A program made the translations under genes and the position numbers. From positions 1 to 64,000 of IMG/VR virus record IMGVR_UViG_3300025705_000005: 64,000 nucleotides of DNA, one strand, 5' to 3'. The notes below the pieces were generated by a model. That model saw only the letters and a list, made by a program, of their open reading frames with translations. It made no database searches and was not told the origin of the DNA. The stretch comes from a virus. Of the stretch, positions 17,915 through 38,400 are shown one piece after another (the stretch's first letter is position 1; each line of letters opens with the position of its first letter).

Positions 17915-20152
17915 TTATCCTATTTTCTTTAGTGAGTGTGTTTGTGTTGCCAACCAATATTTGTCTGGTAATCCAGCCATCTTAGATGCTTTCTTAATAG
18001 CTTCAACTGTATTTCTTGCTTTTACTTTATATACATTCTTCTTAGATAGTTTAACACCACCAAGATTCATATCAGCAAAACTCATTTCCCAAGTTGCAAA
18101 TCCACCTTCGTTGATTTCTTCTTCTTCTACTTCTTCGGATTCGTTTACTTTTTTATTACTAACTGAAGCTAACATATCTTTTGCTGATACTTTCATCTTC
18201 ATTAATTTAGATGATGGTAGTTCACCAAATCCAAATGACTCGTTTAACATAGAAGTAAGTTTCATTGATTTAGATTCGTTTGAAAATTCTTTTGCGTTTT
18301 CTTTATCATCCTTATCAACTGATTTTACAGGATACGTTTTACCATCTACAGAAAATTCACTATCACCATTTGCGATTGCTTTAGCTCTAGCGGCACCGAA
18401 TTCATTTCCTTCTTCAACCGTTTCTTCTTCATCATGCGATTCATTGATTTCGTAATACTTTCCTAACACTTCACCTATTTCATCATAAGTAGATTCTAAT
18501 CTCTGTTGTAGTGTTCCAACTTCTCTCAAAGTTTTCTCAAATATTCTAAATGATTCATTCATTCTCTTTACGTGTCTACTAACTGTAATACCATCAAATG
18601 AACCTTCAGTTTCTTTAACCATATTTTTACCAGCTGATTCTACTAACCCTCTGATTGATTCGTACACATCAGATAATCCTTCGTTTCTATATACAGTTTC
18701 ACCAAACGATTTGTATGCTTTAACTGCTTCTAAAAATGCTTGCTTTTGTTCCGTAGTCATTTCTGAAGATTCTTCTCTTCTCTCTTCATCGTTTTCTTTA
18801 ACGAATGGAGTGTGGAATGGGTTTGAATAAACTTTACCGTTTTCAAACGATTCTTTTAATATATCTTTTAGTTTCATAGTTCCCTCTTTTGTTATTTCCA
18901 TCATCTTCTTAGCCTCAGCTTCGATTTGTTTCTTAATGTTAGATGGTACTTTTTTATCGTAATATTTTATTTTTCCTTTTGAATCAATGTGAGCTACATT
19001 TTTGTAATCACCATTTTCTTCTTCGGCTTTATTGTAAACAGTCAATCCGTTTCCTTTACGAGCCATTCCAATATCGTACTTAGCTTCGTTCATTACTGAT
19101 TCGCTCATACTTAATATTGCTTTTTTCTTTTTCAACATTAGTTTAAGAAATAACTCTACCAATTTACCATTCTTATCATCAGTCATACGGTGTGGTCTAC
19201 CAACAAAATCTTGTCCGATACCATCCATCTTACCTGAACGTTGAAATTTAATCATACCTGATTGTGATTTAATTGCAAAGTCACCCATACCTAAATGTAC
19301 AAGCTCTGAATTTGGTAATACACCTTTACTATAGTTTACAAAGTTACTATCTACTATTGTTTGGTTTCCAACTCTTTCGTAGTGACCTACATCCTTACCT
19401 TCATTTACTACTGATTCATCAACTGCTGGTTTAATAAACATTAATCCAACTTTTGATTTAGGTACTTTTAATTTTTTGATTGCTAATAGTTTTGCGTTGT
19501 AAAGGTCTTTAGCTTCACCTTTTTTAATTTCAATTTTCTTACCATTGTATCCAGCAATCCATCCTGCAAACGTTGATTCGTTTACTGATTCGTTCTTTGT
19601 ATCTGAATACAAATCTTTAACCCACTCCATTGATTCTTTATTTGGCTTAACCTGCTTACCATACTTTTTGAAGAATTTTTTAATAAACTCTTCTTCAGTT
19701 GATGATGACTTAATTGTAAGGTGTATATCACTCATCACACCCTCTTTAAGTCCCTCAGGAACACAATTAGGAACATCTTTACCATTCTTCTTCTTCATAC
19801 CTACCATTTGGTAGTTCTTCCAACAGGGGTTATCATCTTCATTTACATTATCTCTCATTGCTTTTGATAAATCGCTGATGTACTTTAGTTCTTCTTTAGC
19901 ACCTTTGTGTTTAGCGTATCTATCTAAACCAAACGACATCATAATACCTAATGATAAATGTAATCTAGCTTTTGCTGCTTTTGGATACTTTCTACCATAA
20001 GGAGATGAGTTAAACCAATCAATCATAGCTTGTGCCATTTCTTTTGATAGTTTGATTCCCTCTACTCTATCAGTATTTCCTTTTACAATCTGTTTTAGTC
20101 CACCGATTGCTGAGATTTCGTTAAGTGAGTTTTTTATATCTGTTAATTTCAT
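17915..20152 (-). CDS. Multi-module putative head-internal polyprotein
   Basis: Likely start MKLTDIKNSLNE at 20152; >10 segments delimited by (I/L/V/M)-(N/K)-E; includes a CWKNYQMVGMKKKNGKDVPNCVP module; directly downstream of the prohead protease. Confidence 0.7.
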   Translation of the reverse strand: MKLTDIKNSLNEISAIGGLKQIVKGNTDRVEGIKLSKEMAQAMIDWFNSSPYGRKYPKAAKARLHLSLGIMMSFGLDRYAKHKGAKEELKYISDLSKAMRDNVNEDDNPCWKNYQMVGMKKKNGKDVPNCVPEGLKEGVMSDIHLTIKSSSTEEEFIKKFFKKYGKQVKPNKESMEWVKDLYSDTKNESVNESTFAGWIAGYNGKKIEIKKGEAKDLYNAKLLAIKKLKVPKSKVGLMFIKPAVDESVVNEGKDVGHYERVGNQTIVDSNFVNYSKGVLPNSELVHLGMGDFAIKSQSGMIKFQRSGKMDGIGQDFVGRPHRMTDDKNGKLVELFLKLMLKKKKAILSMSESVMNEAKYDIGMARKGNGLTVYNKAEEENGDYKNVAHIDSKGKIKYYDKKVPSNIKKQIEAEAKKMMEITKEGTMKLKDILKESFENGKVYSNPFHTPFVKENDEERREESSEMTTEQKQAFLEAVKAYKSFGETVYRNEGLSDVYESIRGLVESAGKNMVKETEGSFDGITVSRHVKRMNESFRIFEKTLREVGTLQQRLESTYDEIGEVLGKYYEINESHDEEETVEEGNEFGAARAKAIANGDSEFSVDGKTYPVKSVDKDDKENAKEFSNESKSMKLTSMLNESFGFGELPSSKLMKMKVSAKDMLASVSNKKVNESEEVEEEEINEGGFATWEMSFADMNLGGVKLSKKNVYKVKARNTVEAIKKASKMAGLPDKYWLATQTHSLKKIG

Positions 20153-20162
20153 ATTATTTCCC

Positions 20163-20780
20163 TTAGATTGAACAAACACCATCTATTTCACAGATGATAT
20201 CTCTTACCAATGTATTAATTTTTTTATATGAAGGTTTTTTACCCTTACTTACTACTGATTCATTTACAGGTCTCATAAATGCACCATGTGTTGATGGGTT
20301 TGAAACAAAATCCCAACAAATTAAATCAAAATCATCTTCTACAGTTACAGTTTTACCATTACTAGCTTCTTTTACAGAACCCATACCTCTTGAAGAGATA
20401 CCAACAGTACAACCTGCCTCTAAAAGTTCTTTGAGGATGTTGCCTGCTGGAGTTTTAAGTACTTCTACCTTACCCATTACATCATCACCCTTCCAATATA
20501 CTTCTCTGATGATATGTGAAGTATTTTTTAGTTCAACTACAGAAGATTCAGGATGGTCTAACTCACCAAATGCTCTATTTTCTTTAATTTCTCTACCTTT
20601 GTACTTTTCCACTTCTCTTTCTAAGATTGAACGTGGATAAACTCTACCATTTTGGTTTTCAGCTTCAGCTCTTTGTAGCACACCATTAACAATCAACCTA
20701 CCATTGTTATCTTCCAATGATTCATTGATTTGCCTCTTAGTTAGAGTAAAAGGAATTGTATCTATAAGTAATCTACCCAT
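20163..20780 (-). CDS. Prohead core protein protease (gp21-like)
   Basis: NQNGRVYP, GELDHP (His), GISSRGMGS (Ser) and DFVSNPS. Likely start ATG 20780, in TAATG overlap with the upstream small ORF. Confidence 0.95.
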   Translation of the reverse strand: MGRLLIDTIPFTLTKRQINESLEDNNGRLIVNGVLQRAEAENQNGRVYPRSILEREVEKYKGREIKENRAFGELDHPESSVVELKNTSHIIREVYWKGDDVMGKVEVLKTPAGNILKELLEAGCTVGISSRGMGSVKEASNGKTVTVEDDFDLICWDFVSNPSTHGAFMRPVNESVVSKGKKPSYKKINTLVRDIICEIDGVCSI

Positions 20781-20914
20781 TATGCTCCCCACACTTTTCG
20801 TTTTCTATATAAATCAAACATGATTTGTGCTACTTCATATCTTATAAGTAGACGAATATTCTCCAAATCCTTATTTGAAAGTTCTTCTTTTAATATTTTC
20901 TTTTTTAAACTCAT
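20780..20914 (-). CDS. 44-aa small protein (below the ORF-track cut-off)
   Basis: MSLKKKILKEELSNKDLENIRLLIRYEVAQIMFDLYRKRKVWGA*. ATGA overlap with the upstream gene and TAATG overlap with the protease fill the gap exactly. Confidence 0.75.
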   Translation of the reverse strand: MSLKKKILKEELSNKDLENIRLLIRYEVAQIMFDLYRKRKVWGA

Positions 20915-21399
20915 GATGAAAGTTCTTTTAAGCTTCTAGCCACTTTTAACATACGTTCTGATATCTTAGAGAATCTTCTTTGAGTCGATTCCCAATACTG
21001 ACCATTATGAACACCTGCTTCAGTTTTCAATTTAGTGTTTTGATTAACGATTCTCTCTAACTTAAACATCATACTATTGATTTCTTTAATAGAATGGTTA
21101 ATTTTCTGATGTTGTTTTAGGTTCTCATCTTTCTTATACTCTTTATAAGAAATTTCGTTAATTTTATTTTCTAACTTACGTTCTAATGATTCTAATTTTT
21201 TTGAGTTCATCTTTGATTCCTTTGTTTTCTTATAACCTAACACCTCAATGTGGTCATCATCCAACTCATCCTCTTCTTTACTCTTAGAAAACGCATGTGG
21301 AGTTTTTACAGGGCCTTCACCACCATCTAAATTAGCAGTTACGTTAGCTTCTTCTATTTCTTCAAACTTATTTTCAATTTCTTTTAGTAAACTTTTCAT
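20911..21399 (-). CDS. Head-module protein (possible prohead core component)
   Basis: 162 aa, coupled on both sides; LLKE, IEE/A and INE sites. Confidence 0.6.
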   Translation of the reverse strand: MKSLLKEIENKFEEIEEANVTANLDGGEGPVKTPHAFSKSKEEDELDDDHIEVLGYKKTKESKMNSKKLESLERKLENKINEISYKEYKKDENLKQHQKINHSIKEINSMMFKLERIVNQNTKLKTEAGVHNGQYWESTQRRFSKISERMLKVARSLKELSS

Positions 21400-22288: not shown

Positions 22289-22296
22289 TATAAATA
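22289..22296 (-). promoter_or_regulatory. TATTTATA putative late-promoter element
   Basis: Recurrent intergenic octamer. Confidence 0.55.
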
Positions 22297-22304
22297 TAAT
22301 AATT

Positions 22305-24182
22305 TTAAGAATCCAATATGTTTTTTTCATCTAATAATGGTGATGGTGTCTCATTTGTATCAGTTTTTAAAGATTCACGCAACATTTCCTTTGTTTTTAC
22401 TTTAGATTTCATACGTGATACTATCCCTGTAATTTGTTCTTGATTGATAACTGAAGTAGCATTGTATCGTTCATTCTTAGATAAAGATTTGTTACCTAAT
22501 GGGTCTCTACCAAATGGATTTTCATCCGTACCATAGTTACCACCTTCTTTAGGTCTACCTGCTCCATCAAATCCACCTTCTGGCGCCCCACCTTTGTTTT
22601 CACCAAATGGGTCGTTTCCACTATCACCACCACCTTCATCACCACCTTGTTGTAATGTTGCTAAATCATGTGGAGTACCAAATGATTCACCAGTCTTAAC
22701 CGGGTCATTACCTTCTGATTCAATTTGTTCATGTCTGAATCCTAATTTTAAATCATTGATAACTTTGAATTGCTCTTCTTTCCACTCATCTTCACTCATA
22801 TTGAATATATTCTTATAAACCCAATCTTGCGATACCATTTTTAAATCTTTTATATCGCTAGCCAATGAAATCTTTTCAGACCAAAGGTTTGCTTTCTCTT
22901 GCTCATATATAATAGATGGATTGGTAAGTTCTAATTCGAAGTTTACTAATTGGTCATCTGTATATCCTTGCGAATATAAATGTACAATTGCAATCTTAGT
23001 TAATTCTGAAAGTACAATCTTTTGGATTCTTTCTACAGAACGTGCAAATCTAATATCTTCTTGTGCTAATGTAGCTTTTCCTTCTACACCTTCTTCATAC
23101 CCAATAAATGCTTTCGGAACTTTAAGTGCAGCTAACATTCTGTTTCTTAGGTATTCAATATCATCAATACCACCAAACTCCATTCCACTTAGGGAATCAA
23201 TCTCAGTACCACTCTGCCCACCTCTTACAGGTAGATAGTAATCTTCCATCATATTCTGCATATTGAATTTAAGATTGTAATCACCAGTAGTTTCATCGAT
23301 ATAAGGAACTTTTTTCATCTGGTCTATAATAGATGCCATATATGTATCTACTTCTGCAGGTGGAATGTTTCCAATATCAATTTTAAAGATTCTCTTTTCA
23401 GGTGCTCTCATAATTCTATGAATCATCATAGCATCTTCCATAAGAGTTAATTGTTTCCAAGTCTTTCTTGCACCTTCTAATAGTGAACGGCCATAAGGAA
23501 GGAAGTTTGTATCTGTTAATAATCTAAAGTGAGCCACCTGAAACGATTCTAAGAACTTAGTATTGTTTCTTTGTGAAATGGCGTTTGTATTTTGTTCTTC
23601 TACTTCAAATCTTACTGAGTAAGGATTATCTAAATCATATCCTTCTTCTCTACGAGTTTCATAACAAGATAATGGTTGTGCATTTACAACACCTAACTCA
23701 TCATCAATATCTAAGTAAAGATAATAATCACCATATTTGTTCATACCTCTAACCCAAGACCAAAGATTGAACTCAATGTTCAATACATCGTAGAATAAGT
23801 TATGTAATGTTTTCTTTAATTTTTCATCATTAGATTTAATACGGATTACATCACCCATATCATTTTTTAACGTACATTCATCTGAGTATATATCTAAAAT
23901 AGATGAGATAATAGAATCCTTATCCATTGCCTCATAATCTGTATATAGTTCTAACTTATTTGAATGATAATTAAATCTTTCGTTGTATGTTTGCCAATTC
24001 TTTCTTGAGTTAGAACCATGCAATCTACCATACCTATCATAATACGCAGAACCTCTACGATTACCATCAGATTGTAGTCTTGATGAATCTACTACCTTTA
24101 ACTTATCTTTACCAACTCTTCTTACAACTACTTGAGTTGAGAATAATCTCTTTAATCTACCAAATAATGATGTATCTGCCAT
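22305..24182 (-). CDS. T4-like portal protein (gp20)
   Basis: QLTLMEDAMMIHRIMRAPEKRIFKIDIGN, MEDYYLPVRGG, GTEIDSLSG, DDIEYL..ALKVP. Confidence 0.95.
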   Translation of the reverse strand: MADTSLFGRLKRLFSTQVVVRRVGKDKLKVVDSSRLQSDGNRRGSAYYDRYGRLHGSNSRKNWQTYNERFNYHSNKLELYTDYEAMDKDSIISSILDIYSDECTLKNDMGDVIRIKSNDEKLKKTLHNLFYDVLNIEFNLWSWVRGMNKYGDYYLYLDIDDELGVVNAQPLSCYETRREEGYDLDNPYSVRFEVEEQNTNAISQRNNTKFLESFQVAHFRLLTDTNFLPYGRSLLEGARKTWKQLTLMEDAMMIHRIMRAPEKRIFKIDIGNIPPAEVDTYMASIIDQMKKVPYIDETTGDYNLKFNMQNMMEDYYLPVRGGQSGTEIDSLSGMEFGGIDDIEYLRNRMLAALKVPKAFIGYEEGVEGKATLAQEDIRFARSVERIQKIVLSELTKIAIVHLYSQGYTDDQLVNFELELTNPSIIYEQEKANLWSEKISLASDIKDLKMVSQDWVYKNIFNMSEDEWKEEQFKVINDLKLGFRHEQIESEGNDPVKTGESFGTPHDLATLQQGGDEGGGDSGNDPFGENKGGAPEGGFDGAGRPKEGGNYGTDENPFGRDPLGNKSLSKNERYNATSVINQEQITGIVSRMKSKVKTKEMLRESLKTDTNETPSPLLDEKNILDS

Positions 24183-24213: not shown

Positions 24214-24221
24214 TATAAATA
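24214..24221 (-). promoter_or_regulatory. TATTTATA putative late-promoter element
   Basis: Recurrent intergenic octamer before portal. Confidence 0.55.
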
Positions 24222-24249: not shown

Positions 24250-25821
24250 TTATAGTAACCAACTTATATCTTCATCACCTTTACCAGTTTTAACCTTCCA
24301 AGAATCCGTTGCTTTACCTTGGTTTGTTTTAAAAACACCTGAGTGTTTGGTAGTATGGTTTAATGCCCTTCTAGTTAATTCAATTCCTTGCTGTCTAAGT
24401 TTAAGTGCGGTATCTCTTACCCATAACCCTGTACAAAATGATATTGTTAAATCATCATTATATCCAGATTGAGCTTCTGCTCTACTTCCATTCCATATAA
24501 AAGTAAAAAGTTCATCAATTAATCTTTTGGAACGGATGATTGGAACTCTTTCTCTCATATAAGTATCTAATTTTGATATAACTAATGGGCGTGTTCTACT
24601 AGTCATTGAAAACCCTGGAACCATTTGGGATTTATCTTTTAAATCATATCCCTTTTGTAAATGTATATCTTCATCTACATATCCAAATTCTTTAAAAGAA
24701 TAATATAGATTAGAATAATTTCTATCTATTGCTTCTTGAATAACTGCCCAACCAATATTAGCGTTTTCAATCACTAATAATGCATCGTTCCATTCGGTTG
24801 CAACGTTTACTAACATATTACCATAATCTTTAGTACCAATCTTACCTTTGTACTCAGCAACCTGCTCTACACTCTCTACATCAATGACGTGGAATGCTGA
24901 ATAATCTGCTCCATCACCTCTAGCGACATCGGCAACTACTACATAATCTTTAGTATAATTTGGTTGTGACCATAACCAATAGTTTCCATCGAACCCTCTT
25001 TTTTCAACTGGTTCTTGTACATGAGTTTCTTCATACCATTTTAGGAGCTGCCCATCTACAACTGTATAACCAGAACTGATAAAATCACAATCACATTCCT
25101 GTGCTGCCATCTTCTCACCTAATAGTTGAGTTTGTTCTACTCTCCAAGATTCATTTCTTTCAGGGTGTACAGTCCAATGAAGTTTGATTGGATTCCAACC
25201 ATCATTCTGTTCACCTTTTAACCAAGTTTTGTGAAAGAAGTTACCAACACCATTGGGAGTTGATAATACAATTGCCTTACCACCAGTTGAAAGAGTAGAT
25301 TGAGCGGATGCCCAAATCTCATCTACACTTTTAATAAATGCAGCTTCATCTATAATCAACATTGATAATGCTTCTGAACGACCTGCATCACCACTAGCTG
25401 ATGTTGCTTTGATTGTTGAACCATTTCGTAATCGTAAGGATAGTTTGTTATCTTCTTCAGTTTCACCTCTTAGCCAACTCGGTAAGTTCTCATGCATATA
25501 CCTAACCTTAGTAACTAAGTTTTTAGCTACCTCTTGTTTAGTTGCAATTACCAATATGTTTTTATCTTCGTGAAATAACATCATCCATAAAGAATAACCT
25601 GCGGATAATGTTGAGATACCTAACTGACGTGATTTAAGGATTACATTGTATCGGTGGTCGTTAAACTCACCCATAACATCTTCTTGGAAAGGATACAAAT
25701 CAAAAAGAATCTTACCTCTCTTTGGGTGTTGTATATAACAATACTTCTTAAAGAAGTAAACTGGGTCTGTAGCACATTTAACGTACTCTTCCCTAATAAG
25801 TTCTTTTATGTTCTTGCTCAT
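24250..25821 (-). CDS. Terminase large subunit (gp17-like)
   Basis: LYPFQ adenine motif, KSRQLGIST Walker A variant, IIDEAAF Walker B, STPNG, nuclease ADVARG...DYSA and NDDL. Likely start ATG 25821 (ATGA overlap). Confidence 0.95.
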   Translation of the reverse strand: MSKNIKELIREEYVKCATDPVYFFKKYCYIQHPKRGKILFDLYPFQEDVMGEFNDHRYNVILKSRQLGISTLSAGYSLWMMLFHEDKNILVIATKQEVAKNLVTKVRYMHENLPSWLRGETEEDNKLSLRLRNGSTIKATSASGDAGRSEALSMLIIDEAAFIKSVDEIWASAQSTLSTGGKAIVLSTPNGVGNFFHKTWLKGEQNDGWNPIKLHWTVHPERNESWRVEQTQLLGEKMAAQECDCDFISSGYTVVDGQLLKWYEETHVQEPVEKRGFDGNYWLWSQPNYTKDYVVVADVARGDGADYSAFHVIDVESVEQVAEYKGKIGTKDYGNMLVNVATEWNDALLVIENANIGWAVIQEAIDRNYSNLYYSFKEFGYVDEDIHLQKGYDLKDKSQMVPGFSMTSRTRPLVISKLDTYMRERVPIIRSKRLIDELFTFIWNGSRAEAQSGYNDDLTISFCTGLWVRDTALKLRQQGIELTRRALNHTTKHSGVFKTNQGKATDSWKVKTGKGDEDISWLL

Positions 25822-26417
25822 TTCTTTCCCAATTTCCAAAGAAACTGAGTAGATATGATTGGTTGGAATTGGTCATTTAATCCAATACCCAATCCAAATG
25901 CCTGCTTCTTCTTTGTTCTAAGTAATATAGAACCACCAACATAATTAAATTGCTTAGTTGTTCCATTCAAACCAAATCCTACATAGAATTCGTTTTTATT
26001 AATATACTTTGTTTCAGTTACAGTAGTTGTTGGGTAGATTAAATCGTAGATTATTTTTCTTGATAAAATTTTGTTCTGTGAGATAGTATCTTTAATTGTT
26101 AAATTCAATGAATCTAATTGTTGAAAGTCCTCATAAACATATTTTGCGAAGTAATCCTCTAAAATAGATAGAGTATCAATTTTCTGAGTTAACCTAATGG
26201 TATCAATCTCAGTTTTGATTCTGGTAACTATTTTAGGAACGTATTTTGTAACTTCTTTAGTAATGGTGTCGTATTTCGTTTCTACCTTTGTGATAATAGT
26301 AGGCTCGGATGGAGTATTATCTACTCCACCTGTACCACTGCATTGTCTTAGAAAAATTATTACTATAATTAATACTAAGATTATCAGATTCTTAAAATTT
26401 CCGATATACTTTTCCAT
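25818..26417 (-). CDS. Membrane-anchored protein, possible spanin/lysis accessory
   Basis: N-terminal hydrophobic helix ending LRQC, extended DT(I/L) stalk, and C-terminal amphipathic beta-strands ending FLWKL. Confidence 0.45.
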   Translation of the reverse strand: MEKYIGNFKNLIILVLIIVIIFLRQCSGTGGVDNTPSEPTIITKVETKYDTITKEVTKYVPKIVTRIKTEIDTIRLTQKIDTLSILEDYFAKYVYEDFQQLDSLNLTIKDTISQNKILSRKIIYDLIYPTTTVTETKYINKNEFYVGFGLNGTTKQFNYVGGSILLRTKKKQAFGLGIGLNDQFQPIISTQFLWKLGKK

Positions 26418-26426
26418 TTGCTACGC

Positions 26427-26759
26427 TTATTTTTTAGTAGCAGGTTTTCTTTTTTTGTTTGCTGGCTTTCTACCTTTTCGGTTTCCACCCTTTGCAGCTT
26501 CTACAACATCTTTAGATTGTTTAGCTAAGTTTTTACCAGCTTCTTTAACGTCTTTAAGTTCTTCTTTAACTCTCTTAACTCTACGTTTAACTTCTGATTT
26601 TACTTCTGCTACTTCTTCTTTGATATCTTCTACTGTATCCTCTACTACATCAGGAATAAAATCTCCATCTCTATCTTTGATTTTTCCAGTGTATAGTAAA
26701 ACTGCGTATGTTGCTGCTATAACTGCTACAATTCCTACGATAATTAATAATGTACTCAT
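26427..26759 (-). CDS. Single-TM membrane protein with DxDGDxxPD motif and basic tail
   Basis: N-terminal TM helix, DRDGDFIPD, coiled coil and Lys-rich C-terminus. Confidence 0.55.
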   Translation of the reverse strand: MSTLLIIVGIVAVIAATYAVLLYTGKIKDRDGDFIPDVVEDTVEDIKEEVAEVKSEVKRRVKRVKEELKDVKEAGKNLAKQSKDVVEAAKGGNRKGRKPANKKRKPATKK

Positions 26760-26790
26760 AATTTGCCTTTTTAGATTAAACTTCTTATAC

Positions 26791-26798
26791 TATAAATA
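26791..26798 (-). promoter_or_regulatory. TATTTATA putative late-promoter element
   Basis: Recurrent intergenic octamer. Confidence 0.55.
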
Positions 26799-26822
26799 TG
26801 GTAATATATTTAATAAACCTAT

Positions 26823-28607
26823 TTACCATTTTCTACAAGACCAATAGTTTGCTTTCCATTTTGGTCCAGGGTTATCACAATTCATTCTAGCTCTAAATGA
26901 TTTTCTAGCTTCTGGATTATCTTTTTTGATTACCATTCCTTTTTGCCCAAAGTGAACTACTACAACATTTCCTTTTTCGTTCTTAACATATACTTTGAAT
27001 TTTTTAGAATCACCTTGCATTGGTTTGTTAAGTTCTACTTTTCTACCTTGATACTCAGCCTCTTCAATTACTTCAGAAGTATTTTCTTTTTTCATAAGTT
27101 TGTAAGCCGTATGCCCCATCATTACGATACCACTCTTAACAAACTTATCTTTATTAGATTGTTTTTTAAGTGCATCATATACTTGAATCATTAGGTTTGC
27201 TGAATTCATATCAACTCTTACCTTCTTACCACTCTTAGTATCTTTAATCAAATCGTTTTGTGAATCTTTTACGATTTTTCTTAATTGAGTAATTACTTCA
27301 GGTTCTTTAGCTTCGTTGATTGATTCGTTTACACCTTTGAATCTTCTTTTAATATCGTTGTAAAATTTCTTATGATATTTTTTAGGAATATGGTCTGATT
27401 TTAAGTAATCATATAAATCTTGCTCATCACTCCACATTTGCCCTGCAGCTTCATGTTGTGTTGAACTATACCCAGCAGCGATATCTAACATAGTGTACAT
27501 ATCATTATGATTTAAACTTTCGTTTACCGATTCATTTATATCTTCAATGGTAGCTGCCATATTACCAATTGCCATAGTTACGTTTCCGTTTCTCTGATAT
27601 AAATAATACTTAACACCTTTTGGGTTTGTTACATTCTGAAGGATTATACGTTCTACTTTTTGTTTACCTACTAAAGTTTTACCCTTAGTTACTTTGAATT
27701 TTGCTTCATTACCACTACTCATTGATGAACCATACTTAATTGTAATCTCATCACCTTTTTTGAGTTTATCGTAAATCTTAAATCTGGCTTTCATATCCAT
27801 AGATTTACCTTCGGTTAATCCCTGTTGGTTGTTTATTTCATTTACTTTTTGTTCGATAGTATCAACGTGTGATTGAATATAAGAATGTTCTTGTTCCAAT
27901 CCCATTATTTTTGCCATCTTCATAATATTTTTTGCGATATTATTAGCAACCATTGAATAATCTCTCTCAGGGCTGTATCCTTCTCTCTGAATATGTTCTT
28001 CTATAAAGAAAAGTGCATCTTGTAATCTTACACTTCTTTCAGCCATATCCATATCAACACCTTTGGATTCTATATCACCATATAGTGATGATGCGCCAGG
28101 ACACATGTGGAAGTATTTAGTTTGGTATTCACCTATCTTAATTTCTTCTTTATCATTTTCATCTTCACCCATTGTACTCATATCTTCATACTCATGTGAG
28201 TGGGTTACTTCTTTAATATATTGAGTTACAAAGCTTCTAAAATTTTCATTCATTCCTTCTTTAAGAGAAGTTACTTTAGCACCTACGGGCCCACCAATAA
28301 ACATTGAAACAAAGAATGCTATCGCATCAATGATATCATACCCATCCCATTTTGCTGCCTTAGCGATTGGTTCACCATGATTCTGTTCGATTGAATCTTC
28401 CAAATCTTTTCTACCAGCATATTTGGATTGTTTTGCTTTAGGAAACATTGAATCCACTTTCTTAGCCTCACTATGAAAGTTTGCATCTCTTAGTGCTCCT
28501 ATTAGAATGTGTTTTACTCCATGATGTACTTCTGGGTCTGAACCTTTGTACCCTTTGAAGTATGCATCTAAGTCTTTTTTAACTTTTTTATTTAATCTTG
28601 GATTCAT
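26823..28607 (-). CDS. Multi-module putative head-internal polyprotein
   Basis: 594 aa; linkers SLKEGMNE, GLTE/G, DINESVNE/S, GVNESINE/A and VIEE/A; last module AEYQGRKVELNKP...RKSFRAR..C.....W...YWSCRKW. Confidence 0.7.
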   Translation of the reverse strand: MNPRLNKKVKKDLDAYFKGYKGSDPEVHHGVKHILIGALRDANFHSEAKKVDSMFPKAKQSKYAGRKDLEDSIEQNHGEPIAKAAKWDGYDIIDAIAFFVSMFIGGPVGAKVTSLKEGMNENFRSFVTQYIKEVTHSHEYEDMSTMGEDENDKEEIKIGEYQTKYFHMCPGASSLYGDIESKGVDMDMAERSVRLQDALFFIEEHIQREGYSPERDYSMVANNIAKNIMKMAKIMGLEQEHSYIQSHVDTIEQKVNEINNQQGLTEGKSMDMKARFKIYDKLKKGDEITIKYGSSMSSGNEAKFKVTKGKTLVGKQKVERIILQNVTNPKGVKYYLYQRNGNVTMAIGNMAATIEDINESVNESLNHNDMYTMLDIAAGYSSTQHEAAGQMWSDEQDLYDYLKSDHIPKKYHKKFYNDIKRRFKGVNESINEAKEPEVITQLRKIVKDSQNDLIKDTKSGKKVRVDMNSANLMIQVYDALKKQSNKDKFVKSGIVMMGHTAYKLMKKENTSEVIEEAEYQGRKVELNKPMQGDSKKFKVYVKNEKGNVVVVHFGQKGMVIKKDNPEARKSFRARMNCDNPGPKWKANYWSCRKW

Positions 28608-28609
28608 TT

Positions 28610-29194
28610 TTATGCTCCGTTATTTTTTAGCTTATCTATAAAGTTTTCTTTAAAGGTTTTAAATTCGTTATCAATTTTTTCTACCACTTCTTCTTCTGTC
28701 ATTCCTTCATTCCATTTTTCAATAGAACCATCTTCATTTATAAAAGATGCTTGAAGAGTTGATTTAATAACTTCCTTTTCCATCTCAGCTTGTTTTAACC
28801 AAGCTTCGGCGTTTGCTAGTAACTTTTTCTTTTCATACTCTTCGTACTTACCATCTAATTTTAATTGATGTTCCATTTCTACAACACAATTTAAACACAT
28901 ACCATGTATAGCTTTCATTTTTAAATCAGCTCTACTTGGTTCTGTAGTAGTACAAGTTTCTTTGTTGCAATTAGGAAATGAATTTAACTCTTCTCTGAGT
29001 TTAGCCATTTTCCCAATCTTAACTTTGTAACCATTTCGTTGTTCCCACTTTTGATTTTTATCATCAATCCAAGTTTCTCCAACTTCACGTCTTTCAACGA
29101 CTTTATCAGCAAATGAGATGCTTTTTTTAGTTTGGGTTTTGTGTTGCCCACTTAACATTTCACTTACTGCTTTAATATTTTTTAACTTTGCCAT
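28610..29194 (-). CDS. Hypothetical protein with Cys cluster
   Basis: 194 aa; CNKETC and CLNC pairs suggest Zn binding. Confidence 0.55.
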   Translation of the reverse strand: MAKLKNIKAVSEMLSGQHKTQTKKSISFADKVVERREVGETWIDDKNQKWEQRNGYKVKIGKMAKLREELNSFPNCNKETCTTTEPSRADLKMKAIHGMCLNCVVEMEHQLKLDGKYEEYEKKKLLANAEAWLKQAEMEKEVIKSTLQASFINEDGSIEKWNEGMTEEEVVEKIDNEFKTFKENFIDKLKNNGA

Positions 29195-29208: not shown

Positions 29209-29216
29209 TATAAATA
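29209..29216 (-). promoter_or_regulatory. TATTTATA putative late-promoter element
   Basis: 14 nt before the ATG of 28610..29194. Confidence 0.55.
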
Positions 29217-29230
29217 TGAAAATAAAATCT

Positions 29231-31528
29231 TTAAGAGTAAAATAACCCTAAAATCTGATTTAGTGATGCGAATGTACCTGTTAATTTGTATGTTCCACCT
29301 TTATATGTGAATACAATACCCTCATTTGGTACAATCTTATCCTTACCACCTACAGCGGCTAATCTTTCTAATTCCATTTTTAATTTTGCAATCTTCTTTG
29401 GGTCTCCACTCTTCTGAACATCTTTGATTGTGGAATCCAATCTCTTCTTCATATCTCTAACTGCCTTATCAGGGTTAACTGTTAATGCTGAACCCATAAA
29501 TGAAAGTACATCTGCACCTACACCTAAGAATATATCTTCGAACTTACGAAGGTTTGTTTTAGATATTTTTGCTTTATCCTGTTTATCAGTTTTGGTTGCC
29601 CAATCTAATACTTTAGAATCAGAAATATTCTTTTTGTTTAATCTAAATGAGTTATCATAGAATGCCCATCTTTTAACCAACGCCATTTTAGTTTTGTTAT
29701 CTAATGTAGATGGTGAATTTTTATCAACATATTGTTCCCACCATGCTTGATGGTAATCTGCAACACCATTAGAATCTTTTAGTTTAAATTCTTTTTGAAC
29801 TTTGTTTAATTGTGAGTAGTACTTACCTTGTAACTTAGAAAGTTCTACCGATTGTGGTAGATTTACAACAGGTGGTCCTTGAATTGTATAATTCTTTTGA
29901 ACATCCTGATTGATTTGTTTAATCATACCAGCTAATATTCTAGCAGATGAAGTATCAGCTCCAATTGCTTTTCCATTCTCATCATAATCCATTGTTCCGT
30001 GGAATACTAAAAGTGGTTGTCCATAAGGAATCACATTTACTGATGTTGGGAATATAACTTCTATATTCATAAAGGATGAACCTTGATTGAATACTTTATC
30101 TCTTTGTGCTTTTGATAATCCTTTGATTGCTTTAGATAAATCTTCCATAGCGAAATTGTATGCATCGGTTAATCCACCTCTACCTTGAAACTTAGAAGCT
30201 ACTCCACTAATATCCAATGCGTTTTCACCACTATTCTTTAGGTGTCCACCATTACGAGCGGCGATTAATCCTTTATCATCTCTCCAACTAATAGCAAGTG
30301 CTTGTCCATCTGTTTTTTCTCTAGTGAATTCTAACTTACCATTTAAAGCGTTTGATATGATTGTTTTTAAATCACCAAACGTTAGATTCATCTCTGTATC
30401 AAATGGGTGAGCCATATGTCCGTATGCTCCACCTTCAGTAATCAATCCTTCTTTTACTATATTTTCTGGTGAAGTTTCTTTTTTAGGTTCATTCTTAGAA
30501 CTATCTTTTGATTTTTCAGCTCCTAAGAAATCAACAAGTTCATAACCTACCATAGTAGCTACTGTTGTTATCTTATCTGCCCATGCTTTGTAAGCATCAG
30601 TTCCTTTTAAATCAGTATATCTTTGAGATTGTGCATCTAATCCTGCAAGACCTGATGGGAAGTATGATACTGGGTATTTATCTTCAATATTTCTATTATC
30701 ATCAGCGTATATAGTTTCATCATCGGTATCTAATATATAATCAACTACCAACCATCCTAATCTTTTTGCTGTTTCATCACCAACTGCTTTATATGATTTT
30801 GAGTTACCATAATATGCGCCTGGCCCATCATCAACACCTTGTGAGTTACCACCAACACCTACTTTGGTAGAATTGGCTTCTGATAATAATTTATTAAAAT
30901 CAAATGTAGATAAAAAAGATTCCATCTGCTTTGATATCTTACTTAGTTTACCTGTTATGAATTTGAATATCTTTGGATTAAACTTTCCATCGTATGCTTT
31001 TTTGAAACCAGCCTTTTTTGAATCATCACTACCTAATGATAATAACTTTCTAACTTCAGTTCCACTAATACCACCACTTTGAGCTGGTGCTACATAAACA
31101 TATCCTTTATCTTCATATCCTTTTTCAATTCTATCAGGATGGTATGGTTCAAAGTATTTACCTTTTAATCTGTATCTATCCTTTTCACCAACTACAGTTA
31201 CAAATGCTGTTTTAGATGAATCAAACTTACCTATAATTTCTTTTGGGGCGTATGGGTTTTTGATTTGAACAATTTTAGATGATGGAATGCCAAACATCTT
31301 TGTCATAATCATTTTCTTTTCATTAAACTTAAATGGTGATTTGATATTATCTGTTTTATTAGATGTACCAATCCACACATTATCTCTACCAAATTGTTTT
31401 ACCAAATGTTCGTAGGTAGCATTATGCCCTTTATGAAAGGGTTGAAATCTACCAGCGTAAACTACTACCTTTTTTTCTATATTCTCAGTTAAGATTTCCT
31501 TAACCCATTCTTTAATTAATTTTCCCAT
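29231..31528 (-). CDS. HIGH-family nucleotidyltransferase fused to an ATP-dependent-ligase-like domain
   Basis: N-terminal YAGRFQPFHKGH ... ISGTEVR (cytidylyltransferase/NMNAT-like); C-terminal EKTDG (KxDG), NIEV, EGIVF and YKLT (ligase-type motifs I, III, IV, V). Confidence 0.75.
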   Translation of the reverse strand: MGKLIKEWVKEILTENIEKKVVVYAGRFQPFHKGHNATYEHLVKQFGRDNVWIGTSNKTDNIKSPFKFNEKKMIMTKMFGIPSSKIVQIKNPYAPKEIIGKFDSSKTAFVTVVGEKDRYRLKGKYFEPYHPDRIEKGYEDKGYVYVAPAQSGGISGTEVRKLLSLGSDDSKKAGFKKAYDGKFNPKIFKFITGKLSKISKQMESFLSTFDFNKLLSEANSTKVGVGGNSQGVDDGPGAYYGNSKSYKAVGDETAKRLGWLVVDYILDTDDETIYADDNRNIEDKYPVSYFPSGLAGLDAQSQRYTDLKGTDAYKAWADKITTVATMVGYELVDFLGAEKSKDSSKNEPKKETSPENIVKEGLITEGGAYGHMAHPFDTEMNLTFGDLKTIISNALNGKLEFTREKTDGQALAISWRDDKGLIAARNGGHLKNSGENALDISGVASKFQGRGGLTDAYNFAMEDLSKAIKGLSKAQRDKVFNQGSSFMNIEVIFPTSVNVIPYGQPLLVFHGTMDYDENGKAIGADTSSARILAGMIKQINQDVQKNYTIQGPPVVNLPQSVELSKLQGKYYSQLNKVQKEFKLKDSNGVADYHQAWWEQYVDKNSPSTLDNKTKMALVKRWAFYDNSFRLNKKNISDSKVLDWATKTDKQDKAKISKTNLRKFEDIFLGVGADVLSFMGSALTVNPDKAVRDMKKRLDSTIKDVQKSGDPKKIAKLKMELERLAAVGGKDKIVPNEGIVFTYKGGTYKLTGTFASLNQILGLFYS

Positions 31529-32448: not shown

Positions 32449-35400
32449 TCAATTTTGCACCAGTCCCTGTCCACTACGAGTAGTCAGAGTGTATGTTTGT
32501 AATAGTAACCCAAAGCTTGAGTAGCCCGATGTAATTGCACCATCATCAAATTGTATCCCATCATCTTGAATAGATAATTCTAATCTAGCAATATCATCTG
32601 ACCCAGCGTTTGTTGGGAATAATATATCATTTATTACATATGGTGGTGCTACCTGTAATGTTAAATTCATTGTTACACTTCCACCCAAAGAACCATCTAA
32701 AACTAATGTAGTGTGGCCACTAACTGTTTGATAATAAGAACCTGAATTTGCACTATTAACATTTACAAACTTTTCAACAATATTAGTTGCGGTTACGAAT
32801 CCTTCTTTAGTTACTTCAAAACCAGGACTTACAAAACCACCTAATTTCATAGAACCACTATCTAAACTTATAACTGAACCCTCATTAGGTGATAGGTTAA
32901 GTGATTGTAGTTCACCAGTCTTAATTTGCCTTCCACCAATTTGTGTTCCAAGGTTTGTTTTTGGTTTTATTACTAAATCTCTAACATACGCAGAGTTAAG
33001 TCCATTCCCAGACCAATTTAATATATTCATTGAAAAGAATTCAGTCCCTGCTGATGGGGTGTAATTCGTTTGATATGTAATCCATTCTTGTGGCCAATAA
33101 GAACCATTTAAGTTATTACTTACATTACCTACACCAGCTGAACCTGATATTTTTGTCCAACTTAAAGTAGCTTCACCACTAGTACTAAGGGAACCTGGTT
33201 CTGAATTACTGCTGTTGGCATATGAAGCATGGGTTATAAATTTTACACCATCTTCTCGTGCACTTGCATCATTAGATTCATACACTCTTAGATACATACC
33301 TGTTGTACCTGATGTATAGTTGGTAGCACCACCTTTAACAGTTATTGTTATTCTATATGCAGATGCTTCCTTTTTTATAATTTTGGTTGCCATTCCAATA
33401 GTAGTATCCCCAGGGTTGGATAATTCTACAACTTTACCAATAGTACCCCCGAAATCACTAAATTTTATATTACTTGCGACATTATTCCCATATGTTGAAA
33501 AGAAATCTGCAGGTCTACCATCCAATGCGCTAATACCAGCCGATGGGTTTGTTATTTCGTTAAATAGATTTTCTACAGCTTCAGCAGGGTCACCAAGTGT
33601 AATTGCATTCCCATCCGCATCCAAAACAGAGATAGCTCCAGTTACTTGTACTGCCCCACCACTATCTATTTCGAAATTAGGAGTACTGATTTCTAATTTA
33701 CCAGCAGTATGATTAAATCTCATGTAATTACCACCAAGTTCACCAACTGCGAATTTAGCATTTGGTCCATCTAATAATATACCTTTTTCTGTAGTGTATG
33801 CCCCAGTACCACCAATTTTCATTACACCATCATTAAGATATAACGCAGTACCTGTATCGGTTGATAAGTTGTTTGATTTTATAGTACCTGTTGTAATTGA
33901 ATCACCACTAATTCTACTTGTACCACCAGAACTAAATTCTTTTATTTTTATATAATCAACATGCGTTATACCCTGCGTATCATTGTAGTTCAATAATAGA
34001 TATGCTGATATGAATCCATTATTGATTTCAGCTCTCAACGTTCCAGGATTAGTTTTATCATCGTGCATCGTAGTATCACCATTTGAACCACCTGTTCTTG
34101 TTGCTCCTTTGAAATAACCTTTGAATGTTTGGAAATACCCAGTACCATTACCAGTACCTAAATTATTAGATGATAGAGTAATATAATGACCTGAAGTATT
34201 ATTATTCCCATCATAACCAACTCTAGTTACACCATCTGATTGCATTCCGTTTATACCAACATATGCTCTTGTATTAGATGTACCAGCCGTTCTTTTGATT
34301 CTAACTTCTACCTCATATAATGATGATTCATTAAATGGTATCAATGTATTAGAAATTATATTTGCTTCATCATCACCACTATTGTTTCCTACAACAAGCG
34401 CTTTACCTGAAATACAATCCGTATCTGCCTCTAATGATGGAGTAGAACTACTCGCCCCTTTGTTCCAAAACCAAGCATCACCTGTCCCATCCATCTTTGG
34501 AGCATTACCACCATTTGTATCACCTACAGCTGAGTATTGTGAGAAATCATCAAAGAATACTACATTACCATCTCCGTTATCAGGTCTACCTCTAAAGGTT
34601 ACATCACCTGCGATTTCTACGTTTCCATTCGAACCACTAATATATTGTGAAGTTCCACTTCCTAATAAGAACTTATCTACTTCTATATTTGCGTTTGAAC
34701 CACTAATTAATAATGATTTATTAGTATTGTTCCATGCTAAGTAACCATCGCTTGGATTACTTGCTCCACTAGCATTTCCACCTAAGTAAAAATTACCACC
34801 ACTATCTAAGAATGATGTGAAATCTGCTAATGTTGCGGTTGTTCCACTACCAATTGCCCCATGATATCCAAATACATCTGAGTTCATTAGTAAACCTGCT
34901 GCTAACGTACCTTGTACTCCACTTAATGATGCATCTAAGAATGAGAAGTCTTGATTGTTTGCTCCTTGGTCTCCCTGCGGTCCAGCTTTAGATTTAGCTA
35001 TTGAGTAAGTTTTAGATATTGAAACACCACCACTAACAGCTGTAAGTATTACAGAACCACTATCGGGTGTTAATGCTGAAATTGTTAGTACTCTGTTACT
35101 GATTGTTGCAGTGAGGTCTGTTGAGTTTTGGTTTGTTACAGTATAATTAGATGATACGTTTGTTACACCTTCATATATAAACATTTCAGTACCACTACCA
35201 TTAAATGATGAAACAGTTCCATCATTAGCAGCTGGAACTACATCAGCTTCAGATGTTAGGAATGCCGTTACTGCATCTACCCCACCAGCACCAGCTGCGC
35301 CAGGTTGAACTGCTACAATTGTAACTGTATCAAATGTTAATTCAGTTGTTGAATCAGCTGCTTCAGATACACTAACTGTAATTGTTTTTGGAGTTGAGAA

Positions 35401-38400
35401 ATATGATGATGGAATTGTGAAGTTTTTTGTATCACCATTTGCTGATACTCCATTTGTATATGTAAGTTCATCTGTTATACCATCGCCTGTAAATTTAAAG
35501 TACCCATCTGTAAAGTTTTGTGAATTTGCTGATAATGTAATTGTACCACTTGGTGAAGGGTTTAACCCATCTGCATCATATGTTACAACATTAGTTGCCG
35601 CAGTTAATGATACAGTTTTAGAACCAGACCCGGCTGCTCCTGGAGCTCCATCAGTACCTGCTCTAGATTTAACTAATGACATTGTTTTATCAATCTTTAC
35701 AACCCCAGTTGATAAATTACCACTACCATCTTTTACTTCTTTAATTTCAATATAATCTAATCTAACTACTCCGTTGTTGGTAGGGTGACTAGCTATAAAC
35801 ATTGGTGATATATAAGTTGCGTTTGTATGGATAGTTTTTGGATTATTAATATCAGGAGATTCACCACTATTAGTTGCACTTGATGCACCATGACCTGAGA
35901 AATATCCTCTCTTAGTTACCCAATCTGTACCTTCGTTTTCACCAAATGAAAACCCAGCTGCAGCTATATAATGTTGACTACTAAAAGTATTGCTACCAAC
36001 TACGTTACGTTTTGTGCTTTCATTACTCCAACCATTTACACCAACATAAACTGTTCCAGTACCAGAAACTCTTTTAAACCTAGCTTCAATATAATAAGTT
36101 TTAGTATCATCATAAGCAAATATATCTTTACCTGCTATCCAAACCCTATCATTATCAGCATTATTACCAAATTCAACATAGTTGTTTCTTAATTCACCAT
36201 CACCTGAACCAATACTTATAGTATCAGGATTATCAACTAAGTGCCAATCGTTATCAGTTCCATTAATATCACCAGCACCCCCAACAAGAAATTGTGAGGT
36301 AGCCCAATCTTCACCAGTTCTACTTCCCCAACCACTATGATGGATACCACCACTAATTGCAGTGATTATTACAGAACCACTATCGTGATTCATATTTGTA
36401 ACATTTAAGGATGATGAATTAAATGAGTTAAAATCGTTATCAACAGTAATGCCTGTATTGGATACTCCATTGATAAAGTAGTTTGTTGTTTTATCTGTTA
36501 CACCTTCAAAAATTGTAACATCAGTTTCTGCTCCTACATATGATGGAACTAAACCATCAGCACCTGCTGCTAATGTGTGTGATTCGTTACCTACTATAAC
36601 AGTAATAGCATCAGTACCCGATGTACCATCTGCTCCACCATCTAAGGCGAATATTTTAAATGAATCACTTAAAGATCCTGATGTTACTGTTATCGTTATT
36701 GGGTATTTAGCTTTAGGAGATGGTGAGTTTGTATTAAATACTAAACTACCACTTATTACTCCACTATTATTTGGTAATGAAGTAGGGGCAAATGTAGGTA
36801 CATTATGACTACCACCAACTGCATCTATAATTGTTATATCAGATGCCGTTAAAGTTTTTCCTAAATTTTGTTGAGTAATAAATAACTCAATTGTTGTATC
36901 ATCAGGTGTTGTTGCTGATGCTGATGCAAACGCAAATACTTGTGAATCACCAGTTAATGATATTAAGGATGCTGATGTTCCTGGCGCTCCATCTGAACCA
37001 TCATCTCCTTGCAGTGCTTGTGATATAGACATCAATTTAGTTAATACAACTGAACCTGATGTTGCTGTAATTTCAACTGAACCACTAAATGGAGTTGTTG
37101 AATTTGTTATTGTTACAGTATCACCACTAGTCGTTGTTGTAATATGAGATGAAATTGAACCAGTGTTTATAGTATAATCATTGGTTACATTTGATGTACC
37201 TTGAAATACTAAAATATCTGTACTTGCTCCTGCGAATGATATTACATCACCTGATGAACTTACAGGAAGTGTATGTGAATCGTTAGTTAATAATGCCGTT
37301 ATTGCTGATACACCTGATGTACCATCTGAACCACCCTCAACTTTAAATATTTTTACTGCGTCTTGAAGTGAATCTTTTGTTGCTGATATGGTTAGTGGGA
37401 ATTTTGATTTATCACTACCCATACCACCAGCATTTGTATTCCCTGCAAATGATACTGAACCACTTACTATACCCGTACCACTAACAGCGTCTGTATTATC
37501 AAATGTAAAGTTTGTAATATTACCACCACCATTCATTTGTATTGTAACATCACTTGCTGAAATAGGTGCTACTAAATTCTGTTGTTGAAAACTAAATTCT
37601 ATAGAAGATGGAGTTGCTGATGTATCTATAACATCATCGAATGCCATAACCTGTGAATCTAAACTACCAATAAGTAATTTAGCAGATGTTCCATCTGAAC
37701 CATCAGGCCCTTGTTTGGATTTAACCAAACTCATTATTTTATCTATACTTACACTACCACTTGAAGCGTTTATATTAACATAAGCGCTATCAGCTGTCAT
37801 CGTTGATATGGTAACTGTGTTTCCACTATCCGATGCACTTACCCCAGCACCATTAGATGATGATATAACATAATTAGAAGTTACATTTGTGATTCCTTCA
37901 AATACTTCCATATCCGTAGAACCACCCGCAAATACTGCAATTGAGCCAGATGAATCAGCTGCGAATGTATGTGATTCGTTTGTAAGGAAAGCAATTACTG
38001 CATCCGTTCCATCTACTCCATCTCCACCACCATCAATTTTAAATATTTTTAAACTATCTTCTAATCCATCTTTAGATACTTCAATCGTAATCGGTAACTT
38101 ACTTTTGGTGGATGAAAGAGTTGTATTGAATGTTATACTACCACTAACTTGACCTGTTCCATCTGTTACACTTGCAACAAATGCTGGGTCTGCTAAGGTG
38201 TTTCCACCTGAATCTTTTATTGTTATATCACCAGCATCTATAGTACCACTTAAATTTTGTTGGTTAACAATAATCAATACATCATTATCTATTGGTGTAT
38301 TAGATGATGCTGATGGGAATGAGAATACTTGTGAATCTGATGATAGTGATAACAACTTAGCAGCTGCTCCTGGTAAACCAGCAGTACCCTGCTTTGATTT

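Follow-up and report, generated by a model that had tools for sequence, protein, structure and literature searches.

Tailed phages are usually described with one gene per protein. What, then, is the role of a reading frame that joins six unrelated small proteins through joints written in nearly the same letters? This question is raised by gene B, a predicted 594-amino-acid (aa) six-module polyprotein encoded at 26823-28607 on the minus strand and delineated from its open reading frame (ORF), its candidate cleavage sites, a module table and a structure model. The window in which it lies, that is the whole stretch of DNA analysed, comprises 64,000 nucleotides (nt; positions 1 to 64,000 of the IMG/VR record IMGVR_UViG_3300025705_000005, the assembly being a single 74.5-kb contig). 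Two further module-built genes of the window are referred to as A and C. We consider it probable that gene B encodes a head-cargo polyprotein of a distant, uncultured marine T4 relative and that the linker between its modules doubles as a recombination joint. The motif distribution, the protease family, the cassette variation, the breakpoints, the codon-level conservation and the movement of cassettes between genes were established computationally. A sequence-only reading of the locus held in its testable parts, while cutting, packaging and a causal role of the linker as microhomology are what we infer.

That reading had proposed about six modules with named separators in gene B, and both the ORF and the linker residues were confirmed. 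The six modules (65-136 aa; residues 1-117, 122-257, 267-359, 364-428, 433-516 and 517-594) are mutually unrelated and mostly basic. They are separated by SLKE/GMNE (residues 115-121), KVNE..GLTE/G (255-266), DINE/SVNE/S (357-363), GVNE/SINE/A (426-432) and VIEE/A (513-516), where a slash marks the candidate cut. The parts of gene B are the following:

28257..28607, minus strand: B module 1 (residues 1-117), helical, predicted local distance difference test score (pLDDT) about 90, ending in SLKE
27837..28256, minus strand: spacer GMNE and B module 2 (residues 118-257), acidic, from the module table
27531..27809, minus strand: B module 3 (residues 267-359), a basic beta domain in the model, with a sub-threshold Pfam match to Big_8
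27519..27533, minus strand: adaptor GAATCGGTAAACGAA, encoding ESVNE, at the doubled site DINE/SVNE/S
27324..27518, minus strand: B module 4 (residues 364-428), absent from the related loci L013, L018/19 and others and from the contigs of the public runs X16 and X17
27312..27326, minus strand: adaptor GAATCAATCAACGAA, encoding ESINE, at the doubled site GVNE/SINE/A
27060..27311, minus strand: B module 5 (residues 433-516), basic, alpha/beta, pLDDT 83-89, ending in EVIEE
26826..27059, minus strand: B module 6 (residues 517-594), isoelectric point (pI) 10.1, phrog_7595 of unknown function

Most modules have a pI of 9-10, and the spacers are acidic. An AlphaFold2 model of B, based on 24 related sequences, contains confident separate domains at residues 1-120 (pLDDT about 90), 270-359 (70-84) and 433-510 (83-89). 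The pLDDT is below 50 at residues 262-269, 360-371, 422-433 and 507-537, which are the linkers, and the predicted template modelling score is 0.33. In the model, gene B fits the picture of beads on a string. In an all-against-all BLAST comparison, the six B modules and twelve A modules fell into different clusters, and the genes are therefore not tandem-repeat or immunoglobulin-type arrays. Searches of Pfam and PHROGs with B, A, C and 17 orthologues gave nothing above threshold save phrog_7595; in Pfam, B and eight orthologues showed only sub-threshold Big_8 or PLAT matches, and nine A or C orthologues none. Foldseek found no match for the whole B model in the PDB at E <= 0.001, and in the ESM Atlas module 6 fell into virus clusters only, all named "hypothetical protein".

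The five linker strings that the sequence-only reading had picked out on the plus strand are present letter for letter. On the coding minus strand they encode ESVNE, ESINE, ESVNE, ESVVNE and ESVMNE, the last three being adaptors of gene A at 19577-19591, 19400-19417 and 19085-19102. The DNA pattern GAATC[AG][AG]TNAA[CT]GAA matched the three 15-nt linkers only, in coding orientation in each case.

Two scans of viral contigs yielded an orthologue set of 80 loci for B and 40 for A. From these, 54 distinct proteins were split at candidate sites, and the 392 resulting pieces were clustered into 88 cassette families, 38 of which are singletons. All 12 complete distinct B orthologues had different module strings, and 18 architectures were counted in 20 A genes. 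The relatives of B mostly retain the last two modules and vary in between, and those of A retain a core (about residues 435-580) and vary on both sides of it. Cassette order also shifts in gene A, as cassettes that precede the core in the window sit behind it in L105, L107 and L110. Shared cassettes are mostly 80-95% identical to those of the window; together with the different cargo sets, this makes cassette turnover a main axis of divergence in this clade.

Breakpoints were mapped by nucleotide BLAST among the 54 genes, with no assumption about linkers. The end of a high-scoring segment pair (HSP) counted as a sharp breakpoint if identity reached 80% or more over its inner 30 nt while the outer 45 nt did not exceed random similarity in any nearby register. 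Half (50%) of the 957 distinct sharp breakpoints were located within 6 nt of a protease-type site, as compared to 7.8% of random positions, and 71% lay within 18 nt, as compared to 19% by chance. Right-hand ends cluster 0-5 nt past the cut point and left-hand ends in the 12 nt before it, which indicates that homology enters the linker from both sides. The other sharp breakpoints represent small indels within modules or miss a site by a few more codons. Raw HSP ends at the protein level showed a mere 2.4-fold enrichment, because many of them mirror local divergence, and were dropped in favour of the sharp nucleotide breakpoints. The expectation that orthologues would differ by indels of whole modules, with breakpoints tied to the GAATC..AACGAA linker, is therefore in line with our findings, and colinearity was not seen.

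Gene B is present in 20 public marine runs from 15 studies, and the contigs of four runs were compared with the window over 26700-28700. These contigs are about 87-90% identical to the window and thus represent relatives, not the strain of the window itself. The contigs of X17 and X16, from two marine studies, each omit exactly 207 nt, or 69 codons, corresponding to module 4 plus one spacer. The joint is 27311>27519 in X17, where six letters fit both sides (the AACGAA part of the adaptor), and 27321>27529 in X16, where five do (the GAATC part); the deletion products read ..NESVNE/AKEPEV and ..NESINE/AKEPEV, respectively. The module between two of the linkers named beforehand has thus been deleted in public contigs via two crossover positions inside those linkers. 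Loose ends at 27326, 27056-27059 and 27084 read ..YINE/A, ..DMNE/ and SVNE/AK... on the coding strand and represent other cassettes that are joined in the same way. RNA-library contigs cover most of B nearly identically, which does not prove transcription. A joint at 27063>28164 in run X14, which skips 1100 nt (not a multiple of three) and spans undefined letters, was set aside.

Conservation of the joints extends to their codons. Counting each junction type (left family, right family) once gave 37 ES[VIM]NE junctions. In these, Ser was encoded by TCA in 31 of 37 cases (p 7e-6), Val by GTA in 24 of 26 (p 8e-6) and Asn by AAC in 31 of 37 (p 7e-7), the background use of these codons in the 54 genes being 48%, 51% and 44%. 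The exact 15-mer GAATCAGTAAACGAA was present in 18 of the 26 ESVNE junctions, as compared to 8.5% expected (p ~5e-14). Elsewhere, Ser after Glu is encoded by TCA in 44% of cases and Asn by AAC in 42%, and the adaptor bias can therefore not be attributed to local codon context. In addition, one junction of L089 carries an exact tandem duplication of a 12-nt unit (ESVNESVNE). The codon excess, the controls and this duplication indicate that the adaptor is copied or homogenised as DNA. The view that the linker codons form a conserved micro-repeat thus stands, as the conservation exceeds what amino acids and codon usage account for. Among the ES[VIM]NE junctions, module 3 was joined to six different right-hand neighbours.

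The same cassettes were found in genes A, B and C of different phages, and modules do move between genes, as had been anticipated. The gene that lies downstream of A, and by position corresponds to C, contains B modules 3 and 5 (families 9 and 3) in L100, where they share 82% and 85% identity; these modules also occur there in L087, L089 and L094. A cassette of about 125 aa (families 25-27) is part of an A-type gene in L093; L025 and L026 carry it, with about 72% identity, in their B-type genes. A 468-aa gene in L027 combines an A cassette (84%) with B module 1 (63%). Melnitz and C48C1, both isolates, contain the same modules scattered over neighbouring genes, some fused to a cytidyltransferase and several with MKKF..E/ leaders. 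Module 6 also stands alone, as a small gene of about 100 aa, in many marine phages, including podoviruses of the pelagiphage and roseophage groups, and in a spindle-shaped virus of Nitrosopumilaceae. To our knowledge, a gp21-type protease is not to be expected in podophages or in an archaeal spindle-shaped virus. A 28-aa Cys-motif cassette of A (CW..Y...G.KKK.GK.VPNCVPE; window 19754-19837, minus strand) is likewise shared with cyanophages and haloarchaeal tailed viruses, and in S-TIM5 (L124 763-1074) it constitutes a gene of 103 aa whose neighbours on both sides are annotated as virion structural. The distribution of the Cys-motif cassette and module 6 indicates that the cassette pool crosses virus groups and host domains. 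In Microcystis phage Mel-JY01 (L123 9705-10169), the nearest cultured relative by capsid, the A core forms a gene of its own (154 aa) immediately behind that of the prohead protease. Comparison with this isolate therefore shows that the A core stands alone there and is flanked by cassettes on both sides in the present clade. No polyproteins were found in Mel-JY01, which ruled it out as a test bed.

Which enzyme could cut such chains? The motif [LIVM]-N-E-[SGA] occurs 18 times in the contig (about 24,400 residues). Of these copies, 17 are located in six proteins, namely the capsid, scaffold and protease proteins and the products of genes A, C and B, and only one in the other approximately 21,800 residues. 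B contains four copies against a mean of 0.13 in 20,000 residue shuffles, and A eight against 0.22, the observed count being reached by no shuffle in either case. The motif is located at residue 9 of the capsid protein and, in the protease, at residues 24 (INE/S) and 178 (VNE/S). The minus strand carries every gene of the region:

14342-15976, minus strand: major head protein, phrog_138, with the 9-aa leader MDLKNILNE/G (homology, motif scan)
16004-17005, minus strand: acidic scaffold-like protein with one LNE/G site (ORF, motif scan)
17160-17459, minus strand: bS21 homologue (phrog_21469), between gene C and the scaffold gene (homology)
17514-17909, minus strand: gene C, a 131-aa two-module protein with LSE/GVNE/GTINE (ORF)
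17915-20152, minus strand: gene A, a putative 745-aa polyprotein, directly after the protease (ORF)
20163-20792, minus strand: prohead protease of the T4 gp21 type (Peptidase_S77; PF03420, E = 6e-35; phrog_207, E = 2e-53)
20911-21399, minus strand: 162-aa protein between portal and protease with the leader-like start MKSLLKEIENKFEEIEE/A
Between portal and protease, minus strand: two unknown genes (ORFs)
22305-24182, minus strand: portal (homology)
24250-25839, minus strand: large terminase (homology)

Gene B is located upstream of the terminase gene, behind a cytidyltransferase-like gene and a 194-aa gene. The capsid protein shares 60% identity with that of Mel-JY01 and 55% with that of Flavobacterium phage immuto; Rhodothermus phage RM378 is further off, and classical T4-like phages reach 26-28%. 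These values place the seawater phage on a distant branch of the T4 superfamily.

The T4 enzyme gp21 cleaves behind the Glu of L/I-x-E and has candidate sites near both of its own termini; virion proteins lose N-terminal propeptides of 7-65 residues to it, and core proteins are cut into fragments (PMC9026906). The motif distribution in the present phage follows that of T4, except that Asn is preferred at P2 in this clade. A leader of about ten residues, MKTYQEFIAE, brings the T4 internal proteins into the prohead and is later cleaved off (PMC8442874). Gene A opens with the leader MKLTDIKNSLNE, sister-phage B-type genes open with the 12-aa leader MNNKWISNYINE, and small genes adjacent to the latter open with MIKLKELLE/G; both MNNKWISNYINE and MIKLKELLE/G resemble the T4 capsid-targeting sequence. 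In the window, the start of B module 2, MNENFRSFVTQYIKE, aligns with MNNKWISNYINE, and module 1 is an extra cassette ahead of this usual leader; in L027/L029, module 1 lies within another polyprotein. Overall, cutting of the gene B chain at its linkers and packaging into the head seem likely from this sequence pattern.

Just upstream of the B-type gene, a free-standing gene of 98-101 aa was seen in L011 (3708-4004), L025 (1848-2144) and L020 (3448-3753). It starts with MIKLKELLE/G in L011 and L025, and with MIKLKDLLKE followed by V, i.e. without a small residue, in L020. It looks like a T4-style targeting leader, as judged by resemblance, on a single cargo gene.

We propose the following explanation. 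The six unrelated mini-proteins would be translated as one chain, which would enter the prohead together with the products of genes A and C. There, the gp21-type (S77) prohead protease would cut after Glu at (L/I/V/M)-x-E, denoted h-x-E, with a preference for h-N-E followed by S, G or A. Small proteins resembling the T4 internal proteins would thereby be released, remain associated with the DNA and probably pass into the host cell. As a rule the joint is doubled, a module's own h-x-E site being followed by the four-residue spacer S-(V/I)-N-E; its coding sequence is a 15-nt adaptor that hardly varies and most often reads GAATCAGTAAACGAA. Recombination in or beside this adaptor would delete, insert, reorder or transfer whole cassettes and leave domains and cut sites intact. 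Such exchange would be harmless, given an in-frame adaptor that recurs in a single orientation in three genes, and it would explain why closely related phages carry different cargo sets. That the cargo acts in host takeover or counter-defence is conceivable, and we suggest it with some reserve.

Several observations weigh against this explanation, and they bear on both of its halves. As regards packaging, gene B is located 6 kb from the protease gene, outside the portal-to-capsid block. Its own N-terminus lacks a leader; because the extra module 1 stands ahead of it, the leader-like stretch is internal (residues 119-133), and this is the weakest point in the case for packaging. The cassettes have no known fold or family according to Pfam, PHROGs and Foldseek of the whole B model, and they need not be head cargo by nature, because module 6 is also found in podophages and an archaeal spindle-shaped virus. 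B could instead be an uncleaved multidomain protein that acts in the cell as one chain, as polyvalent proteins do, with ES(V/I)NE as a flexible acidic linker. This would agree with the missing leader and with an operon that contains a cytidyltransferase-like gene and membrane proteins rather than the head block. We nevertheless regard it as quite improbable, since the same four-residue rule applies at the capsid leader, at both ends of the protease and in the scaffold but hardly ever in the other residues of the contig, since B cassettes occur in the head-cluster genes A and C of other phages, and since Pfam revealed none of the enzymatic or peptidase domains by which polyvalent proteins are defined. 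Another possibility is that the variable architectures are metagenome assembly chimeras formed at repeated linkers, considering that the relatives are all assembled contigs and that the linkers are repeats. The 15-nt repeats are, however, shorter than the word sizes expected for metagenome assemblers. Moreover, every junction is in frame, the 207-nt deletion was seen again in contigs of two further studies, and identical architectures were present in separately assembled contigs (L008 and L009, L011 and L016, L018 and L019, L020 and L021), which argues against chimeric assembly. We therefore consider chimeras to be a highly unlikely source of this variation. More serious is the view that the cassettes are cut and packaged, yet represent disposable or DNA-condensing core filler that tunes volume or charge and of which the turnover is near neutral. 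Indeed, the modules are mostly basic, measure 55-100 aa and lack recognisable enzymatic folds, their architectures vary almost freely, and T4 core-protein fragments largely exit the head (PMC9026906). On the other hand, cassettes are 70-95% identical across phages and gene contexts, and some persist as free-standing genes in unrelated phage groups. This argues for a sequence-specific function and leaves the filler view doubtful.

As regards recombination, the classification of all 142 junction types gave 45 with the canonical adaptor, 23 with a near variant, 36 with a single h-N-E and 38 with another single h-x-E, many of the latter being sites within conserved domains that were over-cut by the splitting. 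About half of the junction types thus have a single h-x-E only and are beyond the reach of 15-nt homology. Nor were adaptors enriched at promiscuous junctions: their share was 47% at junctions with at least three partners and 52% at those with fewer, a comparison in which modules are over-split and many families are singletons. Selection alone could explain the precise junctions, because only breaks in linkers spare the domains; linkers are just 4-9 aa long, so that viable breaks must land there. Cleavage and packaging could accordingly be real and the linker DNA still have no part in the mechanism, if homologous exchange in flanking cassettes and rare illegitimate events generate the variants, selection keeps the breaks in linkers and the adaptor is copied along with the cassettes. 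The tendency of the ESINE variant to travel with the module that follows it is consistent with this idea. Against it stand the scar-free canonical 15-mers, which are far more frequent at junctions than codon usage predicts, the two crossover positions inside the adaptor for one deletion, the exact 12-nt tandem duplication (ESVNESVNE) in L089, and the fact that T4-type recombination uses short homology patches and conserved linkers (PMC2839356; PMC3157838). We hold a linker without any mechanistic part to be rather unlikely and slightly favour the adaptor as the actual crossover substrate over a merely tolerated junction. The notion of the linker as a microhomology for swapping therefore receives support from junction precision and codon conservation, and it is weakened by the roughly half of the junction types that lack the full 15-nt adaptor. 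A search with 16 window proteins encoded near the loci returned no match to an integron- or shufflon-type recombinase, and the adaptors are in coding orientation only.

Other features of the region may be mentioned here. The 162-aa protein encoded at 20911-21399 may be a core protein of the prohead that occupies the place of T4 gp67/gp68. In Mel-JY01, rpsU occupies the same place in the head block as the bS21 homologue of the window. A 765-aa protein (29231-31528, minus strand) begins in a leader-like manner with MGKLIKEWVKEILTE and carries a cytidyltransferase-like (HxGH) domain at its N-terminus. Its homologue in Melnitz is fused to cassettes known from genes A and B of the window, namely the Cys motif and module 6; this enzyme may belong to the same cargo class. 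A single 3345-aa ORF at 32449-42486 (minus strand) contains no [LIVM]NE[SGA] sites. The T4 late promoter TATAAATA was considered as an enriched element and rejected, because its 18 copies against 14.7 expected are within chance. All 18 copies are on the plus strand, and hence read TATTTATA on the coding strand, and several directly precede minus-strand genes, among these the gene located before B. The strand bias is a weak hint of co-regulation. Examples are:

29209-29216, plus strand: TATAAATA
26791-26798, plus strand: TATAAATA
24214-24221, plus strand: TATAAATA
22289-22296, plus strand: TATAAATA
17486-17493, plus strand: TATAAATA
17113-17120, plus strand: TATAAATA

If our explanation is correct, chains of unrelated mini-proteins are made as polyproteins and cut apart inside the capsid, and the paradigm of the T4 internal proteins extends to a compact and quickly reloadable payload system. 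The analysis also yields a list of dozens of small orphan proteins with predicted mature ends, the delivery of which into the host is possible. The adaptor would be a natural example of one sequence that could be both a protease site and a recombination joint, and its design might be useful for loading proteins into capsids. In its most far-reaching form, which we offer as speculation, the system would be a 'protein integron': a universal 15-nt adaptor serves as head-protease cut site and preferred crossover, abundant marine phages plug small injected counter-defence or takeover proteins into any of three polyprotein genes, a single targeting signal loads a changing payload, and the cassettes come from a pool to which free-standing genes of unrelated phages and archaeal viruses also belong.

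How does this compare with known systems? The likeness to integrons and shufflons is functional only. Closest in processing are the T4 internal proteins IPI, IPII, IPIII and Alt, which, as proposed for the present cassettes, depend on an S77-family prohead protease that cuts at L/I-x-E before a small residue. Short leaders ending in the cut rule are common to them and to gene A, the capsid protein and the sister-phage B-type genes. They, too, are small, basic and diverse proteins, and a conserved targeting leader is the sole common feature of their diverse repertoire (PMC3012670; PMC9026906). In T4, however, each internal protein is a separate gene with its own leader and a single cut, whereas here up to a dozen unrelated proteins are joined in one frame with internal cut sites and exchanged among three genes; the cassettes show no sequence similarity to T4 internal proteins. 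In phiKZ, 201phi2-1 and SPN3US, a gp21-related protease also cuts many head proteins after Glu at redundant neighbouring sites (PMC9026906), but its substrates are separate genes and paralogue families with propeptides, and no cassette chain with a DNA adaptor has been described. Polyvalent proteins (Iyer et al. 2017, PMC5512222) likewise combine many unrelated domains per chain in variable architectures; they are thought to be delivered with the DNA, and proteolytic release is possible (PMC5512222). They differ in having recognisable conflict domains and often an embedded peptidase (MPTase). Gene B has no such conflict or peptidase domain according to Pfam, and its presumed protease is a separate head-maturation enzyme.

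As regards shuffling, the promoter-stem-loop elements (PeSLs) of T4-type genomes (Arbiol et al. 2010, PMC2839356) are short conserved linkers that flank non-essential cassettes, as is the case here, and insertion, deletion and replacement between near-identical phages are steered by them to acceptable places (PMC2839356). PeSLs are, however, intergenic, consist of a promoter and a stem-loop, measure about 100 bp and surround whole genes, whereas the present linker is a 15-nt coding sequence inside an ORF that doubles as a protease site. The T-even gp38 adhesin (PMC3157838) resembles gene B in its in-frame exchange of segments, with crossovers in or near the sequences that code for the most conserved motifs, its hypervariable segments lying between conserved glycine-rich motifs (PMC3157838). 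In gp38, however, these motifs build the core structure of one domain that needs all its segments, whereas here the segments are independent domains that may be missing and the motif is a presumed cut site. In the full-text literature, of which the coverage was incomplete, we found no description of head polyproteins assembled from swappable cassettes with protease-site adaptors. What the present analysis adds is statistics on the breakpoints, controls for codon use, a pair of independent crossovers in public runs, the three-gene exchange and the contrast with a polyprotein-free cultured relative. Taken together, the finding combines gp21-processed internal head proteins with motif-guided modular shuffling.

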